Shown here in pieces: positions 1,574-17,075 of a stretch of DNA of 64,000 nucleotides. The stretch lies in NCBI GenBank assembly GCA_012295275.1, contig CM022672.1, forward strand, positions 18,848,001-18,912,000, read 5' to 3'. The stretch is from Chrysomallon squamiferum. Lineage: Eukaryota; Animalia; Mollusca. A model generated the notes under the pieces. The model saw only the letters and a program-made list of their open reading frames with translations, made no database searches and was not told where the DNA came from. The translations under genes and the position numbers were made by a program. Position 1 is the first letter of the stretch. The number at the start of each line of letters is the position of its first letter.

Positions 1574-2509
1574 TTTTTGTTGTTGTTTTTTTTTTTTTTT
1601 TTTAACTCATAATTTTCTTCATAGTTGACCTTTTAAAAGAAAACAAAAAATACAAAAATAAATTGTTTTACAGGTGTACTGAATTTGTTTTCACGTAAAT
1701 GAATGACATGCTTTCTTTTAACAGTTAACATATACCAGTGTTTCCATTCTGAAATAATTATCACTGCACTTCAACAAAAAAAACATGTTTATTTTATTAC
1801 AAATCAAAAGGAACGCATTTCATTAAGGTTTCTTTGCTTTTACTGAACAAAATTTACACTGGTTTAATGTAAATAAACTAAATAAAGTGATTTCCTTCTA
1901 TTTTTTTTTTCTTATTTTTTTTTTTGACAAGGTGTTTGGTAGCTGTTAATTTTCCTTTAACTATCTTACTTCGTAGAGAAACTGTTATTCAGTTTCGTGC
2001 TGTTTTTAAAATACCGTTTCGTGCAATTTAGTTACCATTGATTCAGATATGACACATATTAATACACAGACTTATTAAGCAGAGAGAAAAAAAAAAAGGC
2101 AAAAGTCAAAATCATCTTTAGTTTGCAGTAAATCCCTTTAATTTTTTTTTTATAATTTATTATTTTATTATTATTTTATTGTTGGTTGGTTGGTTCTTGT
2201 GCTACTGTTGTTTTGTTGTTATTGTCTTTGTTTTTTTTTTTTTGTTGGGTTTTTTGTAGGGATTCATATTTTCGTTATTTATTTCTTATAATAATAAGAG
2301 TAATACAAAAATGAAGAAAGAAAATGAAATAAAACAAATGAGTTTAAATATTGTACAACATAAACGAGAAACCTTTTTTTTTGTCATTTATTTATTATTT
2401 ACTTTTTTTGTTTTATTGTTTATTCTTTTTATTCTTTTCATTTTTTTAAATTTATAAACTGATTTCTGATTTTTTGTTTGTATGTTTTTATTTATTTATT
2501 AATTTTTAT

Positions 2510-3389
2510 TTATCGATAACAGAAAAATACGATATACATAAATATTTGTATCGCCTTCTTTATCTTTGATTATATCTATGTGTATGTAGTAATTTCCGTT
2601 TATTTATTTATTTATTTATATATTTATTTATTTATGTTTTTATATTATTTATTTATTTATCTTTTTATCCATTTACTTATTTATTGATATATTTATTTAT
2701 TTATTTAATGATATTTTTATTTATCGATAATAGAAAAATACGATATACATAAATATTTGTATCGCCTTCTATATCTGTGATTGTATCTATGTGTATGCAG
2801 TAATTTCCGTTTATTTATTTATTTACTTATTTACCTTTTTATCCACTTACTTATTTATTGATATTTTTTTTTATTTTTTATTTTTTATTTTTTATTTTTT
2901 TTATTTTTATTTATCAATAACAGAAAAATACGATATACATAAATATTTGTATCGCCTTCTTTATCTGTAATTGTATCTATGTGTATGCAGTAATTTCCGT
3001 TTATTTATTTATTTATGTACTTATTTACTTATTTATTTATTTACTTATTTACCTTTTTATCCACTTACTTATTTATTGATATTTTTATTTATTTATTTAT
3101 TTATTGATATTTTTATTTATCGATAATAGAAAAATACGATATACATAAATATTTGTATCGCCTTCTTTATCTGTGATTGTATCTATGTGTATGCAGTAAT
3201 TTCCGTTTATTTATTTATTTATTTACTTACTTACCTTTTTATCCACTTACTTATTTATTGATATTTTTTTTTTTTTTTTTATTATTATTATTTTTTTATT
3301 TATCAATAACAGAAAAATACGATATACATAAATATTTGTATCGCCTTCTTTATCTGTGATTGTATCTATTTGTATGCAGTAATTTCCGT

Positions 3390-3424
<35 letters not shown>

Positions 3425-3650
3425 CTTATTTACCTTTTTATCCACTTACTTATTTATTGATATTTTTTTTATTTTATTTTTTATTTTTTATTTTTTTTAT
3501 ATTTTATTTTTTATCTGTGATTGTATTTATTTATTTATTTATTTTTTACAATTTTATCAATAACAGAAAAATACGATATACATAAATATTTGTATCGCCT
3601 TCTTTATCTGTGATTGTATCTATGTGTATACAGTAATTTCCGTTTATTTA
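2510..3650. repeat. Tandem array, 6 units of ~180-250 bp: conserved ~90-bp core plus variable (TTTA)n/poly-T spacer
   Basis: Core TTATC(G/A)ATAA(C/T)AGAAAAATACGATATACATAAATATTTGTATCGCCTTCTTTATCTGTGATTGTATCTATGTGTATGCAGTAATTTCCGTTTATT recurs at ~2510, 2721, 2911, 3117, 3300 and 3554. A second block ACCTTTTTATCCACTTACTTATTTATTGATAT lies in most spacers. Confidence 0.95.
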
Positions 3651-4249
3651 TTCGTTCGTTCAATCATTCATTCATTAATTCATTTATTTTTATATTAATT
3701 TTAATTTTTTTTTTTTTTTAAATTTATCTCTTTATCAATTTATTTTTTGATATTTTATATATTTTTATATTTTTTGTTTACTGATACTCTTATATATACA
3801 TTTTTTAAATAAGTATTTCGCAAACAAAGTATTTATAGCGTTTTTCACTCACAAACTCACGAACACATGTACACACATAAATAAACACAGACGCTAAGCA
3901 ATTCGGTATTTTGTGGGAATGACGTTCAAGCTACCAAAAATATCGTTTCACTTAATTCACGCGGTGTGAAGAAATATTTCATATGCATAGTTTATATACC
4001 ATCTAAAAATAACTGACAGCGTCATAGAAACCGTACTACTACTGAAAAGAAAGGGAAAAAGGTACCCAACACTCCTTTGCGCTATTCAGACAAAACCCTA
4101 CAGTAAAACCGTCACTGCCCATTCGGCCACCTTGGTAATCTGATTCATTCATAAACTGCAACATTAGCTCGTAAGCCACACCTTTCTCACGATCTGGTGC
4201 AGTTTTTATCCACGATATTTAACTAACGTAACGTGACAAGCAGAAAAAA

Positions 4250-4430
4250 TTCAAAGGCGGGGCTTAGGTCCTGTTTGACGTACAAGCCTATAGAATACGA
4301 TTACACAGACGTACTTCCGACTGAAAGAAATGGTAAAGGGTTAACAAATGTTTGGTAATTAATAATAAAGACGAATAGAGAAGCCCCTATTTTTTGACTG
4401 ATGGGTGAGCCGCAGGTTCTGTATAAAATG
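4250..4430 (+). promoter_or_regulatory. Putative promoter of the glycosyltransferase gene
   Basis: CpG-retaining stretch with GC-box-like GGCGGGGC (~4256), ETS-like ACTTCCG (~4315) and TATAAAA (4422-4428), about 200 nt upstream of the ATG. Motif inspection only. Confidence 0.3.
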
Positions 4431-4625
4431 AAAAAATTCTCTAACAGTGTTACATAAGTGACATGTTTCACGAGATGCTGTTTCGCACAGAGGCTTCAAA
4501 TCTTGACATTTATGTGAAGTAACGTTATTATCAACTTTAACGCTGACACAGTACAATTAACATACATAATTTCAATCGAATTGTGGTGAACTGATCTCCA
4601 GGTAATTAAATAAAGAGTAAACACC

Positions 4626-6689
4626 ATGCAAAGAACTAAGCGAATATTTCTGTATTTTACTTTTTGGATCTCACTCGCTCTTATATCCATAGTTCTAAAT
4701 ATTCTTAACATTGACTGGACACGAACTAATGTTTTCCATGGAATTGTTCTCATCGTTATTCTGGGGGTACTTCAAGGCTCAGTCATGGAATTTCCGGTGC
4801 AGACGATTGTGACTTTGGTTGTTGGAGGAGAAAAGCGTCAAACAGCTAAACATACAGACGACAGTTTGACTCTGGTGCTAAATTACAATTTACTAGCAGT
4901 AACAAAAGACGATATTGATGAATGTTTACAAACGATGTATGAAGCCTACATGGGAAACCTGTCAGACAGGATTTCTGCAGTTCTTGTGAGTGCCACAAAC
5001 TCTGACGATCTTAAAAAGTACGAACTGGAGGTGAGAGACAATTATCGTGCTCTCATTTACGACGAACTTTTTCAAGAAGGATTAAGTTTTGCCCACGGAG
5101 AGCCAGTTGATCCAAAGCATATGGAATATATTTGGTCCAAATTTCAAGATGTTGACAAAAATATGTTTCTTCAGCAGTTATTGGATCAAATTTGTGATAG
5201 ATTTGCTAGAGAATTCATGGTGATTCACCGAGTTTCGAGAGTGTTACGTAAGTGTGGACAGTACCAAGATCTGATGCTGTTGTCAGAAGGTGATGACGAC
5301 GCCTACACTTACACAGATCCTGAGTATTACGGAAAACTCGCCAGACCGTACGGCCAGCCTTTGTTCTACGACTCTGAAGACGTAGAAAACATTTTTGGTC
5401 GCAAGTTTGACTACACTTTAGTTCTGGACGGTGACACCGGAGTTCCAGAAGGTTCAGTGTTTGTTTTGCTGGACATCGCGGCAGCACATCCGGATCGTGG
5501 AATAATCCAGCCGTCGATCGAGTTGACTGCTGCCTCTGATGACTCCCTGTTCATGCATCTCGAGAAAATGCGCCAGGCCATTTATGAACCCATGACAAAC
5601 GCCATCATGTCGTTTCTTGGTCAATCGTCGTATTTCGGTAAGGCAATGATAAAAAACACTATTTATATTGAAAGAGTAATCGGGACAAGAGACAATCTTA
5701 TAGAAAGAGTGCCAGTGGATGTTCTAAGTCATGATACTTTCGAAGCAGCAATTCTGCAACCTCTCTATGTTTCGTCGGTCCAGCTTTTAGAAGCTCCACC
5801 TTACAACTATGTGTCGTGGAACATTCGAGAAAGAAGATGGAACAGAGGAGAAGTCCTCTTGTCCATGTACTTTTGGAAAACCTTTTTCGGTAAACCAATG
5901 AGATGGTTGCAGAGAATGGTGCAAGGTGACAAATTCAATGCCACAAAACTGAGAACAGAATCAAAGTTAGACTTTGTATCATCTTACATAGCTCACTCAG
6001 CTTTGAGACAAATGTTTATGAAACCTACGCTTTTGATTTATATCATTATTAATTACACTGCTCAACTCAGGTACCAATATGCCTCACTGATAATCATCAT
6101 GTTTCTTATACTGGTATTTCCTAAATTTGCCACGTGCACCAGAAAGAACTATAAATACGTAGCACTAGAAACACTGGCATCAATTCTCCAGTTCACACCA
6201 GAAGCAATGGTGGGTTGTGTGCGTATCGTGCGTGCTTTCCAAGCAAACATCAGTCTGGATACGAAATGGATTCCTCAAAGGGCTGTGGAAGAAGAATTTA
6301 AAAAATCAAACCCTTTTCTGTCCAGTTTTAAACATCTTTGGGGTTACTCTTTGTTCGCTCTTGTAACTGCTGTTGTATACGGAGTGTTAGCACCAGACGG
6401 AGCTTTGATATTCGTCATGCTAATAACTCTTTTCTTACTTCCTCTGTATACGGGATTCACGTCTCTTACGAAAAAACTCAAATCTTCCAACACGGTTTCA
6501 GATCAGTACAGACAAAACATAGAAACGGGAATAAGTGTTATCAGTATGTCGGACAGTCCTAAAGACTGTTCGCGAATACCGCGCGTAACTTTGCCTTTAG
6601 CTTATTCAGCACAGTCTCTGGATCCTTTCCGAGTGGACGGTCATTCGTCGTTTAGCAAAGCAAGTGCTCCCTACATGCTTGAAGTGTGA
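4626..6689 (+). CDS. Intronless multi-pass membrane glycosyltransferase (GT-A fold), OpgH/MdoH- and Cgs GT84-like; putative beta-1,2-glucan synthase, 687 aa
   Basis: Single uninterrupted ORF. Ordered motifs RKCG (OpgH RKxGN, Cgs RKRGK), DYTLVLDGDT (DxD; OpgH VVLDADS, Cgs ITLDADT), GIIQP, GQSSYFGK (Cgs GEGSYxGKG), VLSHDTFEAA (OpgH ILSHDFVEAA), EAPP..RERRWNRGE (OpgH EELPP..RDRRWCxG; QxxRW equivalent). Two N-terminal and several C-terminal hydrophobic helices. The start context is Kozak-like (ACACCATG). Confidence 0.85.
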   Translation: MQRTKRIFLYFTFWISLALISIVLNILNIDWTRTNVFHGIVLIVILGVLQGSVMEFPVQTIVTLVVGGEKRQTAKHTDDSLTLVLNYNLLAVTKDDIDECLQTMYEAYMGNLSDRISAVLVSATNSDDLKKYELEVRDNYRALIYDELFQEGLSFAHGEPVDPKHMEYIWSKFQDVDKNMFLQQLLDQICDRFAREFMVIHRVSRVLRKCGQYQDLMLLSEGDDDAYTYTDPEYYGKLARPYGQPLFYDSEDVENIFGRKFDYTLVLDGDTGVPEGSVFVLLDIAAAHPDRGIIQPSIELTAASDDSLFMHLEKMRQAIYEPMTNAIMSFLGQSSYFGKAMIKNTIYIERVIGTRDNLIERVPVDVLSHDTFEAAILQPLYVSSVQLLEAPPYNYVSWNIRERRWNRGEVLLSMYFWKTFFGKPMRWLQRMVQGDKFNATKLRTESKLDFVSSYIAHSALRQMFMKPTLLIYIIINYTAQLRYQYASLIIIMFLILVFPKFATCTRKNYKYVALETLASILQFTPEAMVGCVRIVRAFQANISLDTKWIPQRAVEEEFKKSNPFLSSFKHLWGYSLFALVTAVVYGVLAPDGALIFVMLITLFLLPLYTGFTSLTKKLKSSNTVSDQYRQNIETGISVISMSDSPKDCSRIPRVTLPLAYSAQSLDPFRVDGHSSFSKASAPYMLEV

Positions 6690-7626
6690 AGCTGTCGTTA
6701 ACTGTATTGACAACGAGAATGCCAGTATTCGAGAATTTCAAACAGAACATTGCAGCAAGCAGCTGAGACAAACACGTCTCATACAAAAAAACAGTCATTA
6801 ACGAGAAACTACTACTCTTTACAAACAGACCCGTGAAGGTGTATTTATTTAACTATGTAATTATTTATTTAATTTCTTTTTTTTTAAATTATTTATTTAT
6901 TTATTTATTCTTTCATTCATTCGTTCATTCATTCATTCATTTATTGATTCATTTTCTCATATTTGTTCATTTATATATATATACGAAAGTTATTGCATTT
7001 TGGTGCCATTTTCAAAATCATCTGATCCCATGTTTGTAATGAAACTTTTTACATACGTAGGTGTACTTGACTAATCTGTTTCGGGCGTGGATCTAAAATG
7101 ATGGGTGCTATGAAGAATTGTGATAGAAATATATATATCTGATTAGACGATATCATAGCCAACAATCAGAGAGTGATTGATTGTCCAAACAAGCTACGTT
7201 TTAACCGTTGACATTTGTGTTTGCTACCATCAATAATGTAAACGAAATCGCCATTGTCAGGATATTTCTGGGTTTACGTTTCAGAGTTTGAGTAGGAAGA
7301 TAGGAATGATTAAAAAAGGGTGTGGTTTCGGCTATTATTTGAATGAATATTTTTTCTATTAATAATATATTATTCAATTTTTTTATCTTTTTTTTTTTTT
7401 ATCTTATTGACACTAAAATAGGGGTGGGGAGTGGGAAATGTTAAATAAATATATGAATAAAAACTAGCTTAGATTTAAATTATAAATAAATAAAAAGTAG
7501 AAAATTTGATTCACTCGCAAATTAGAATTTTTGATTTCTTTTTTGAAATAACTGAGAAATCACTAAGTTATGTAAGACGTTACAAGTACATACATATATA
7601 CATACATACATACATACATACATACA

Positions 7627-12652: not shown

Positions 12653-12970
12653 CTACAGATGACAAAGTATGTTATTAAATATCATAAATTACTTTCATCT
12701 TATATGTAAAACTTTCCAATTAACAACATGTACAACTAACAAACCTAAAGGTGTTCAATAAGAAAAATATATAGAAGCCTGCCAAATTAAAAATACAACA
12801 TTGATAAGCACATTGCTTAAATAAAAACAAAAATCAAATTCTAAAATTTAACAAAAAAAAAAAAAAAATGAGTTTGATAAATAACTTCAAATAACAATGG
12901 TAACAATAAAGAACTTTATAAAAAAAAAAAAAAAAACATCTTGTGCATCAGCTACATCCAGTGTCTAAAC

Positions 12971-14413
12971 CTATTTTTTGGCTTTTCCTTGAGCTGCAAC
13001 TTTTTCCATGGCAGCCTTAACCTGAGCTTCATCAGCCAGATAGAAGTGTTTGATAGGTTTGAGATCTTTATTTAGCTCATAAACAAGAGGAATACCTGAA
13101 ATTTCAACAAAAAAAAATTAATTTGAAATTTAAATGTGATGTACAATAAGTACATGATTTCAGTAAAACAATAAAAATAATAATAAATAATAATAAAAAA
13201 TTAGAAATAAAATTTTTTTTCTCTAATCTTTAATTCTGTGCACAGTTTTAAACCCGAGCCTTTAAATCATTGTAATATATTCTTCTGTTATGTAAATATT
13301 ATATGACATTATCCATTAAAAGTTACATAAATAAAGATTTGAAAATCATTACTTCCACAAAATGAACTATTCATACACAGATAGAAATAAAGACAAACTA
13401 TTATAGACATACCTAAAACAGAGAGAGAAATAAAGACATTATACATATACATATACAGACAGAGAGGCAGACAGAAATAAAGACAAACAGTTGCACATAT
13501 AGATACAGAGCAGAGAGATAGAAACAGACAAACTATTATACATATACAGAGAGATAGATACAAAGACAAACTATTATACACACTGACATAAAAATATTTA
13601 CATTAAAAGGTGGACAGAAAGAGAAAACAAAAAAACACCCAAAACACAAATACAAACAAGCAACATAATGTTGAGTCAACAAAGCCAAGCAGTAAGCTAA
13701 CAATGCAAATTTTCATTTTCTAATTTATCTGTAATTTTAGATTAATTTACCAGTTGGAATATTAAGACCAGGAATATCGGTGTCACTCATGTTGTCGAGG
13801 TATTTCACCAGAGCTCGCAAGCTGTTGCCATGCGCCGATATGATCACTTTCTTCCCAGCCTGAATAAAATAATAATAATAATAAAATATTGTAAAAATAT
13901 GCATCAAAGTGTGTTTTATTTAGAATGTCAAAAAGGGGTGTATTCAAAAGAAAAAAGTTATATTCAATAAAAAGAATATAAGTCTTATAAATTTAGAAAA
14001 AAAAAAGTACCAGCATTTTAGTCTTCCATCATGTATGATAGAAATTGTGTTCTCGCAAGACTGTTAATCATTAACAATATAAAATCTGTTAACTGCCAAA
14101 TAAAATTAAGCTCATATTTATTTAATCTTTTCATCATGTTTGATACAAATTATGTTCTCAAAAATCATCTGGCCTTGTAAATTTTATAATAAAAAAGGCA
14201 AAAGTGCATTCTTTTATACAGAGATTTGACAACTATTTTGCTGTAATCTCACAAGAAATATCATATGACATCAATATTTGTGTAAAACAGAATCATTTTT
14301 TTATTTCTTTTTATGAGCTGGAAAAATACTATTTCATTTTAAAACCTCCAATAATAATATATAATAATGAACATTAATAGAAAAAAAAATTTGCCATTCT
14401 TAAAACAAATTTT

Positions 14414-14448
<35 letters not shown>

Positions 14449-17075
14449 TAAGAAATGTTTTGTTGTTGTTGGTATATATAACGGGAGTAATTAACCATAC
14501 ACAGATTAAAATTTATTTCGGTGGCACAAGAGAGGGCCAGTGTTTTTATGGGAATCAAATGATTATAAAAAAGACTATCTATTCCTGGTCTGCAGAAGAC
14601 AGTGTGATGTTCTTTGTAATGGCAAAGCAGCATTGGTGTTTTCTGCTGACAACAACTTAGAAAAAGCCCAAATCAAAACAGTTCTTACAGAAGAGAAATA
14701 TGAGTACAGACCTTTATCTCAGGAACAATGGCGTCATACCAGTACGGCAGCACTCGGTTCACTGTGTCCTTCAAACATTCACATCTGGGAATCACACTTG
14801 GATCCAAATCCTTAGGGGGGAAAAAAAAATTAAATTTATTTATTATAAATATAATAAAATTATCTTCAAAACATTTTATTTTGTGTTTGCAAGGTGTTGG
14901 TTTTTTTCTAAAAATTAAAAAACTATACTGCTAATTGTTGTTTGTTTTTTTCAATTATTTATCTTTTTTATTTTTTTTTTTAATTATTTCTCTTTTTTAT
15001 TTTTTTTAAATCAATATTACTTACAATTATTAAAATGAAAGTAAAGATTTACTTTGTACTTGGGATCCTTGCCAGACCAGTGTTCATCTTTTTCTGTCAG
15101 AGCTGGTGGAGGAGTGTCATAAGATCGGCGCCAAATCTGAAAATCAGGTAAAACAAAATTAAACGTGACCTGTTTGCTTTGCTTAATCAAGTTAATGCCA
15201 AATATATATATATATAAATAGATAAATAGATCATTATACATGCATACATGCACAAGTGTTGCCTTGGTTTAAATAGAAATGTTAGGGCACCAAGGCAACA
15301 TTATTTTTATAAAGTTTGCATGGAAATTATGTTGTGATCAATAACTAATTAAAGCCATGTTTATTTAAATCATCAGACCTACACAAACTCAACAGCTTTA
15401 GATATTTGGCACCTGCATCAGCTCTTTTAGCTTCTTTTTTTTAAATCTGTCTTGCAGACGTTTAATTTAAAAGTTAACAAAATAGTCAGTAGAGATGGCT
15501 AATTAACATAATATTGATCTTCTTCACTGAAATATCACATGATTATAAAAAAAACAAGCAGTCATGCTGTGATGCTGCCTTGTGAAGTTGAGAATTATTC
15601 TGTTGCATATTTTACCTTTACTTGCTCTTCACCATATTTGGCTGCAGTTTCAGATTTATTTAGACCTTGGAGACCTCCATAATGTCGCTCATTAAGTCGC
15701 CAATGACGATGAACTGGGATCCAGTGATGATCAGTTTGATCTTGTATATGATAAAGAGTTTTGATGGCTCTTTTCAGCACACTTGTGAAGGCAACATCAA
15801 AAGTATATTTTTTGTCCTTCAGCATCTAAAATAATAAAAATAATAAATTTATATATGTTAGGTATATGGCAATTGTCTGACTTTTTGTAATGCATTTTTA
15901 CTTTCCTTGAAGGGAGTTCCCTGTTATCGTTTCCGTTTCATCATTATTTTTATATATTTTCAAAAACAAAATATATTGTTACATAGTATACATATTCAGT
16001 TTCATCTCTGTATTCTTTTTTTGACATACAATGCAGATATTTAGTGCAGCAAGTACTTAATTTTGGATACCAAATGTGTTGTGATCTCAGCTGCTGATGT
16101 CTTAAAAGTCTGACTTTTCATTTATTTTGTTTGATTTAGTAATTATCTGGCATAATATTTTCTTTTGATAAAGATGTTCATTATGAAGGCAATTCTTAGC
16201 AACTAAGCAAATTATATTTTTATGAATTTTTTCATCTATATAATGAAATCATAAGGAAAATTAATGTTTGAATTGATAATAAAAAAAAGTAAAAAAATGA
16301 ATGTAAAGGATTCAACAATTCATCAGTACTGAAAAAAAAAAAATTCTTTCATATACTGGTTTAATATCTCTGCAGTTCTTGAGAATTACATAATTAAGAT
16401 GTAAAGTACATTTCTGCTAATTAGTGCATTAATTAATTAATTAAAATTCACAGAGTTAGTGAAATGCTTAAAAATTTTGTAAAGATCTAGAACTCACGAA
16501 AAACTTCATTTTGATGGATAATAGTAATATTATTATGAATATAATATGTGAGATATTCAGTGTTTATGTTGCCAAATGATTGAAATGATTCGCAGATTTT
16601 CTACAAATTGATTCAGATTGAAATGTTTTAATTTGTTCGTATCAGTTCTATCAAAGATATCTTGGTGTAATTTAAACTATTTTGTTTGTTTTATGTAAAG
16701 AAAGTCTGAATATTACCTGGAAATAATCATATTTACTGGGATATATTATCATCAACACGTTACTTTTTGTCATTAGTTCGTTTTGAAAAAAACAATAATA
16801 ATAAAGCAGCAAACTAATACAACACTAATAATCAAAATAACATTTTGGTAATTTCTGATTCTGATACTGTTACTCTATGATTTATCCCATTTAAAACGAT
16901 TTATGAAGAAACTGGTAACCATCGGAAACACGTTAATGTCTGTTACCTTTCCTGCAGAAATCGCTTCATGAATTCCGGTATCTGATAAATCGGCATCGTA
17001 CCAACCACAAAATAAATTTTTCTTATTCCATTCACTTTCGCCATGACGCACAAGAACTATTGTGTAAGTTGCCAT
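12971..17075 (-). CDS. PGAM: 2,3-bisphosphoglycerate-dependent phosphoglycerate mutase (dPGM), 6 coding exons, 251 aa
   Basis: Exons 17075-16947, 15825-15616, 15136-15053, 14810-14712, 13859-13751 and 13095-12971. All are GT-AG with consistent phases (756 nt). Motifs [48 protein letters not shown] and C-terminal VAAQGKAKK*. Confidence 0.97.
13370..13580. repeat. Degenerate purine-rich minisatellite in PGAM intron 5
   Basis: AGA(A/T)A(T/C)AAAGACAAACTATTATA-like unit recurs about 4 times, separated by (AG)/(AC)-rich tracts. Confidence 0.6.

Follow-up and report, generated by a model that had tools for sequence, protein, structure and literature searches.

How does an animal chromosome come to carry an intact, intronless gene that resembles bacterial synthases of beta-1,2-glucan, and what might the encoded protein make? 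Few polysaccharide synthases are attributed to animals, namely those for glycogen, chitin, hyaluronan and, in tunicates, cellulose. The gene considered here lies in a 64,000-nucleotide stretch of the genome of the mollusc Chrysomallon squamiferum, which we refer to as the window. The original prediction, made from the letters of the window, read it as a bacterial-type beta-1,2-glucan synthase that this animal had acquired from bacteria.

The description of the locus itself was borne out. The gene is a single reading frame of 687 codons that runs from ATG to TGA without an intron (coordinates of features are collected in Table 1), and the six motifs predicted in it were all found in place: RKCG and RERRW as tabulated, LVLDGDT starting at 5418, GIIQP at 5499, YFGK at 5631 and VLSHDTFEAA at 5721 (window coordinates). 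The surroundings are those of an animal genome, as had been proposed. AT-rich simple repeats lie on both flanks, a spliced, multi-exon phosphoglycerate mutase (PGAM) gene occupies the minus strand at about 12,950-17,075, some 6 kb from the reading frame, and exons for KY-type Ig domains occur at 42-50 kb of the window. GC content is 0.41 in the reading frame, about 0.19-0.30 in its flanks and 0.48-0.55 in the exons of the KY-domain gene. The GC-box-like and TATA-like sites upstream are a putative eukaryotic promoter. The predicted lack of operon partners also held, as we found no other credible open reading frame near the gene and thus no opgG or opgD, and the 64-kb window contains no second copy of the glycosyltransferase gene.

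That such a gene might be a contaminant or the product of a chimeric assembly is suggested by the fact that no independent contig spans the whole reading frame with both flanks, the contig that covers 4471-6849 coming from a run flagged as a possible source. Yet an independent contig (4485-4811) crosses the start codon, orthologues are located on chromosome-scale mollusc scaffolds, and the stretch is present in nine sequencing runs (one organism label, three studies), only four of which are flagged as a possible source, leaving five that are not. We assign this explanation a vanishingly small probability; the reading frame is a real, intact gene of the animal genome. None of the listed runs that carry the stretch is an RNA run.

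Table 1. Features of the gene and its upstream region, in window coordinates
Feature	Position	Strand	Basis or correspondence
Single-exon gene, 687 aa	4626..6689	+	Reading frame and model: 2 N-terminal membrane helices, cytosolic GT-A, C-terminal membrane bundle
GC-box-like (4256) and TATA-like (4422) sites	4256..4427	+	Upstream of the reading frame; pattern match only
Predicted membrane helices 1 and 2 (aa 5-31, 34-59)	4638..4802	+	Hydropathy, model, aligned to Cgs pre-GT helices
Ser122-Ala123; OpgH/Cgs have Ser/Thr-Asp here	4989..4994	+	Profile alignment; Asp = Cgs D527, BcsA D179
RKCGQYQ	5247..5267	+	Counterpart of OpgH RKAG, Cgs RKRGK; K209-Q214 invariant, 88/88 rows
DxD, D268/D270 (= Cgs D624/D626)	5427..5435	+	D268 in 88/88, D270 in 87/88 rows
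YEPM in continuous helix (IF1 position)	5583..5594	+	Model; aligned to OpgH YGPL
SHD; D370 = Cgs catalytic base D739	5727..5735	+	S and H in 88/88, D in 87/88 rows
RERRWNRG; R404/W405 = Cgs R773-W, R407 = R776	5826..5849	+	Alignment to Cgs
C-terminal membrane bundle (aa ~479-615)	6060..6470	+	Hydropathy, model, OpgH profile alignment

The proposed kinship to OpgH and to the synthase domain of Cgs is upheld by family models, profiles and fold alike. All eight NCBIfam matches are to MdoH models (best E 7.7e-11), and all eight fall far under the cut-off, the best score being 40.9 bits against a cut-off of 419. A Pfam scan of the window protein found no glycosyltransferase family, and a PDB sequence search with it reached Cgs at no better than E 0.07-0.6. 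The best match of the family profile is OpgH (probability 98.7, E 3e-16, 327 columns), and the profile also aligns to Cgs (probability 97.5, E 6e-12, 512 columns). Where plasmid matches are named, the genes are of MdoH or Cgs type, and the nearest entry in the ESM Atlas is a mostly molluscan cluster, followed by proteobacterial clusters that include OpgH.

An AlphaFold2 model built from the 88-row family alignment (mean pLDDT 89.8, with a disordered tail from about residue 645) predicts a GT-A domain docked beneath a membrane helix bundle, with Z scores of 13-23 to Cgs, BcsA, HAS and CesA. Its top match is Cgs both in Foldseek (8RF9, E 2.9e-16) and in VIA-align (Z 22.9, rmsd 3.7 A over 532 residues, at a structural identity of 14%). 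The best cellulose synthase (Z 17.3) and HAS (Z 15.1) in VIA-align, and chitin synthase (E 2e-5), rank under it; no OpgH structure is among the fold matches, leaving Cgs as the single beta-1,2 enzyme in this comparison. Animal chitin and hyaluronan synthases and tunicate cellulose synthase carry EDR/TED together with QxxRW. The mollusc protein differs from them in its SHD and RERRW, as originally argued, and also in its best fold match. The best reading is that the protein is a distant relative of OpgH and Cgs that falls outside both families and belongs to one not previously described.

Comparison with named systems places the protein between them. With OpgH/MdoH (E. coli K-12 b1049) it shares the DxD, IIQ, YxGx, SHD and RxRRW motifs, an alignable C-terminal membrane bundle, an IF1 segment in which YEPM resembles YGPL, a comparable size and a stand-alone layout. 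However, identity is 28% across only about 160 residues, the first Asp is absent from the mollusc protein, no opgG stands beside the gene and animals lack a periplasm. With the GT84 domain of Cgs/NdvB/ChvB (A. tumefaciens, PDB 8RF9, 8RF0, 8RFE) it shares a membrane-GT-membrane core of 532 residues and counterparts of D624/D626, D739, R773 and R776. Unlike Cgs, it ends at the stop codon at 6689 without N-terminal, cyclase (GH189) or phosphorylase (GH94) domains; in addition, D527 is replaced by Ala, the region of the Tyr694 primer models as a helix, and there are long insertions relative to Cgs. Eukaryotic gain of an OpgH homologue has a precedent in Verticillium, Fusarium oxysporum and Metarhizium, for which the available text of a 2011 study describes an OpgH-like glucosyltransferase close to Rhizobiales OpgH, states that no other eukaryotic homologue was found and, as for the mollusc family, reports no product (PMC3145793). 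In contrast to the mollusc family, the fungal gene is described there for a few fungi only (PMC3145793); we compared the two by description.

The conserved residues are informative in both directions. D268, D270, D370 and R404 are retained in 87-88 of the 88 family rows, as is R401xxR404W405, the (Q/R)xxRW motif of processive membrane GT2/GT84 polymerases, and position 407 is Arg in 67 rows and Lys in 18. The SHD and RxRRW variants typical of OpgH/MdoH are both present, and D268/D270 form a putative metal/diphosphate site. Roles for the corresponding Cgs residues (D624/D626, D739, R773 and R776), and for D527 as a UDP ligand, are given in the available text of the Cgs structural work (PMC10901819). 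What had been called a full ordered catalytic set nevertheless has no counterpart of the first Asp in the GT2 signature D,D,D,QxxRW, as Ala123 is aligned to Cgs D527 in the profile alignment. Of the 88 cellular family rows, 85 have Ala and 3 have Val in this column; each of the 11 viral rows has one or the other, and all 7 OpgH/Cgs controls have Asp. Judged by alignment, the catalytic set is one residue short of complete across the whole family. The missing Asp may mean another donor or linkage, and the argument from motifs to a beta-1,2 product is weaker for it. We also considered Y320 as the equivalent of the Cgs primer Tyr694 and rejected it: the correspondence appears in a pairwise alignment only, the profile alignment differs, and the residue lies in a helix in the model. 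Since Y320 is retained in only 45 of 88 family rows, there is no conserved primer tyrosine of the Cgs type.

Within animals, the gene is far from private to C. squamiferum. A first protein search, which was word-limited, yielded 155 proteins at E<=0.001 from 7,991 candidates scored; the best 120 of these 155 comprise 40 mollusc-named proteins (23 species), 5 hemichordate-named proteins (3 species) and a remainder without names. Among the matches listed, gastropods, bivalves, cephalopods and hemichordates have orthologues at 52-78% identity, and the closest named protein is that of Haliotis rufescens (73%), which makes a gastropod the likely host. The ten best matches have 65-78% identity, and those named are all from other molluscs. 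Cluster look-up added orthologues from oysters and Mytilus, and a profile search added a more distant copy from the nemertean Lineus, which has SHA instead of SHD; no further animal phylum is named among the best 120 of the 155 matches and in the cluster and profile searches. One oyster orthologue has the accession XP_011437382. Compared with two mollusc-like metagenome contigs, the gene has a dN of 0.26-0.27, and synonymous changes have reached saturation. Among samples 11 of 17 variable codons are silent, in a covered region with about 313 synonymous sites and 1,037 non-synonymous ones. Introns are absent from the C. squamiferum gene and equally from both genomic mollusc-like contigs. By the substitution measures the gene is old and evolves under purifying selection. 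Copies are highest, among the matches listed, in freshwater bivalves (6 in Sinanodonta, 5 in Dreissena and 3 in Potamilus), a hint that fits an osmotic role, although uneven species sampling could shape these counts.

Beyond animals, the nearest kin are unnamed proteins of eukaryotic, protist type, with 44-57% identity across the domain. In a search for longer forms, 23 of 30 matches carry ABC-transporter domains, and those labelled by source come from EukProt, MMETSP and JGI. In the fusions examined, one to three glycosyltransferase copies sit between both halves of a full ABC transporter; one contig (L005) has five copies in a row, and one other match is fused to an MFS transporter. A 12-base dinoflagellate spliced-leader motif was found in 0 of 50 loci, and the labels dinoflagellate-like and diatom-like for the protist group are impressions only.

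A further set of relatives appears to be viral. Sixteen of 28 metagenome loci (L010-L014, L016-L026) are AT-rich, gene-dense where long enough, and encode proteins at 30-36% identity; the neighbours in one of them (L019) include topoisomerase II, PCNA, eIF4E and minor capsid protein P8. An alignment scan of IMG/VR found three contigs with the gene from 22 stretches, two of them labelled as giant-virus MAGs, and a scan with a divergent virus-like alignment recovered the same three and added none. Scans of IMG/VR with a single protein and with a bacterial-type alignment gave 0 of 1 and 0 of 23 stretches, respectively. Giant-virus genes have 32-36% identity to the mollusc protein.

Bacterial carriers are rare. 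A HMMER search of 1.84 billion representatives returned 222 matches at E<=0.001, among them a more distant group that includes a Noctiluca scintillans protein and bacteria. In GTDB (185,579 species), 75 candidate stretches yielded seven loci, from uncultured Gammaproteobacteria, Elusimicrobia, Planctomycetota and Omnitrophota, and a scan with animal-type motifs gave 0 of 33 stretches; such scans need exact short motifs and miss OpgH itself. The proteins of the bacterial group that were aligned have 26-29% identity and lie within giant or GT2-fused proteins, and no opgG was recognised among the neighbours scanned, which were some of those beside these loci. Members of the family thus occur in some animals, in marine protists and giant viruses, and in a few uncultured bacteria.

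Phylogenetic analysis resolves the mollusc part of this history better than its deeper part. A quick tree of the catalytic core comprised 95 rows, including 3 OpgH and 6 Cgs, with Lineus left out because it has no SHD anchor. Full-domain trees were built from 58 and from 28 rows, the latter serving for the careful tree and for AU tests under LG+F+G4. Near-duplicates, fragments and one locus (L045, a wrong reading frame with no motif) were left out, and row labels were assigned by inference for two of five viral rows (P0252, P0264) and for all six protist rows. In the quick tree OpgH and Cgs are on long branches outside the family, the three OpgH rows forming their own clade. In the 28-row tree the window protein falls together with Haliotis and Patella (90/86), two bivalves form a pair (95/93), a cephalopod joins these gastropods and bivalves (83/94), and Mytilus is unplaced. 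The same tree gives good support to each of viruses, protists and the group of bacterial and Noctiluca-type proteins, but not to their branching order with respect to animals. Animal-type rows form one clade in the core tree (support 96). In contrast, the full-domain trees do not unite animals, and 3% of bootstrap trees set them apart by a branch. In AU tests no rejection resulted for animals as one clade (p 0.41-0.43), animals with protists (0.54), animals with viruses (0.11-0.12) or animals with the bacterial and Noctiluca-type group (0.23), and the last value means that a donor in the bacterial group is still allowed. A clade of molluscs with the bacterial and Noctiluca-type group is rejected (p 0.00014). 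We set aside the rejection of animals with bacteria alone (p<1e-4), as that constraint parts the bacteria from their Noctiluca-type sister.

Judged from these trees and identities, the gene already existed before the mollusc classes diverged, and C. squamiferum did not acquire it from OpgH or Cgs. The original prediction had this animal take the gene from bacteria; instead, it has been inherited across molluscs, and its closest non-animal kin are protist and giant-virus genes. Of the tree pattern that had been anticipated, the patchy metazoan distribution was found and the nesting among bacterial OpgH/Cgs was not, in a sample with few OpgH sequences (three rows); the broad, vertically inherited eukaryotic family that had been named as counter-evidence is broad and vertical within Mollusca and patchy across animals. 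Acquisition of a bacterial opgH or cgs gene by the animal's own lineage, with nesting among bacterial sequences, would suit an intronless gene for which MdoH is the only named family matched, but it is very improbable given the molluscan identity of the named proteins among the ten best matches, the class-level grouping of mollusc copies, the position of OpgH and Cgs outside the family, and the AU rejection of molluscs with the bacterial and Noctiluca-type group. Ancient eukaryotic inheritance with many losses, in which viruses and a few bacteria picked the gene up from eukaryotes, deserves more weight, and we consider it unlikely rather than remote: the gene occurs in Spiralia and hemichordates alike, animal monophyly is not rejected, and bacterial carriers are few. 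Set against it, identity between molluscs and protists (50-57%, for the ABC-type group) is the same as between molluscs and hemichordates (53-57%), a high value for a split at the root of eukaryotes, named animal matches come from three phyla only (among the matches listed), and the C. squamiferum gene and both genomic mollusc-like contigs have no introns. This equality of identities, together with the patchy animal range, makes an old transfer into animals via a protist or a virus the most likely origin. The ultimate source would likely be bacterial, with entry into animals before the mollusc classes split.

With regard to function, we favour an old mollusc membrane glycosyltransferase that would likely polymerise glucose into short beta-1,2-glucan, a reading from motifs and model to which we give an even chance; beta-1,2-glucan as the product carries, on its own, about the same balanced probability. 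Its main competitor, which we place somewhat below even, is an active enzyme of the same fold with changed chemistry, that is, another donor or linkage, or glycosylation of a lipid or protein. Beta-mannan and other beta-glucans are examples of such products. Replacement of the uridine-side first Asp in every cellular and viral row speaks for changed chemistry, as do the invariant, family-specific KCGQYQ motif, the long insertions, an identity to Cgs of 14% and the lack of a Pfam glycosyltransferase match. At about 14% identity, GT2 enzymes often switch linkage. The near invariance of features specific to OpgH/Cgs (SHD, RxxRW with Arg for Gln, xIQP and F/YxGK) argues instead for retained chemistry, as does a fold nearer to Cgs than to cellulose, hyaluronan or chitin synthases.

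If the enzyme does make beta-1,2-glucan, a mechanism can be proposed from the residue correspondences. A metal ion at D268/D270 would bind the nucleotide-sugar, D370 of the SHD motif would activate the acceptor hydroxyl, and R404/W405 would hold the diphosphate and the last sugar, so that glucose is transferred with inversion to O-2 of the growing chain at the cytosolic membrane face. Because cyclase and phosphorylase domains and a conserved primer tyrosine are lacking, the predicted product is a linear, OpgH-like beta-1,2-glucan. By analogy, export by a separate transporter is likely, rather than threading through the enzyme itself, as protist relatives are built into an ABC transporter and Cgs has no export channel in its membrane domain, according to the available text (PMC10901819).

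An OpgH/Cgs-related polymerase conserved across Mollusca, including farmed oysters, mussels, scallops and abalone, would point to an unrecognised animal glycan. Beta-1,2-glucan is regarded as a bacterial molecule of host interaction and osmotic function. We entertain, tentatively and as less probable than not, a broader scenario in which molluscs and acorn worms make beta-1,2-glucan, the family moved among marine protists, giant viruses and early bilaterians and was kept for more than 500 million years, and tandem expansions in freshwater bivalves are an adaptation to low salt. Specific beta-1,2-glucanases exist as probes, as described in the accessible part of one report (PMC11842490), and with a single-exon gene they make the animal glycan directly testable. 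Should the product not be beta-1,2-glucan, the family would represent a new kind of glycosyltransferase activity whose donor site is altered. In either case, giant-virus genes, protist ABC fusions and a mollusc gene bring three oddities together in one family, and present a case of gene traffic between viruses, protists and animals.

A search of open full texts returned no paper about OpgH-like genes of molluscs, hemichordates or giant viruses, and no study of where the family came from, how far it extends or what it does; transcriptome tables may list the gene under an automatic name. Orthologues from Haliotis, Saccostrea, Magallana and Octopus are labelled automatically as 'glucans biosynthesis glucosyltransferase H(-like)' in NCBI/UniRef, and annotation pipelines have thus already noted the resemblance of the mollusc proteins to OpgH, as an automatic label only.

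The single-exon glycosyltransferase gene lies in a neighbourhood that includes repeats and multi-exon genes on the opposite strand (see table). A transglutaminase-like stretch is also visible in translation among the distal exons with immunoglobulin domains; we take this combination to be hillarin/KY-like, and the exons possibly belong to more than one gene.

Features around the glycosyltransferase gene, in window coordinates
Feature	Position	Strand	Remarks
AT-rich tandem repeats	2488-3768		degenerate, periods ~183-396 bases; upstream of glycosyltransferase gene
Phosphoglycerate mutase gene	12950-17075	-	ordinary, multi-exon
Exons with KY-type Ig domains (PF23265)	within 42255-63700	-	domain search

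Within the glycosyltransferase gene, positions 4869-5054 are represented by a second contig of similar depth to the first (three runs, two studies). The two differ at 9-11 positions, several of them packed closely together at 4964-4969, and the second is either a divergent allele or a paralogue fragment.

Among animal homologues, near-consecutive locus tags in two freshwater bivalves, Sinanodonta (P0015, P0025, P0044, P0055) and Dreissena (P0047, P0049, P0079), suggest tandem arrays. The nemertean protein P0258 (Lineus longissimus), which has a long serine-rich tail, carries SHA where others have SHD, and may be catalytically dead because of this replacement.

Proteins assigned to protists by inference consist of a full ABC transporter with one to three glycosyltransferase copies between its halves (P0273, P0271, P0270, P0417-P0428; loci L003-L006). 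Such proteins would combine synthase and exporter on one chain. Locus L005 has five consecutive glycosyltransferase copies.

The gene also occurs on giant-virus-type contigs (L010, L012, L014, L018-L022, L029-L031), on most of which DNA topoisomerase II lies immediately upstream; at locus L013, a gene for a GtrA-like membrane protein is nearby. Bacterial relatives (L041-L047 and L027-L028) are embedded within giant proteins in Elusimicrobia, Planctomycetota and Omnitrophota, and have a second GT2 domain fused on in uncultured Gammaproteobacteria. An additional divergent subfamily (P0367, P0377, P0396) has KYGQY in place of the KCGQY motif.
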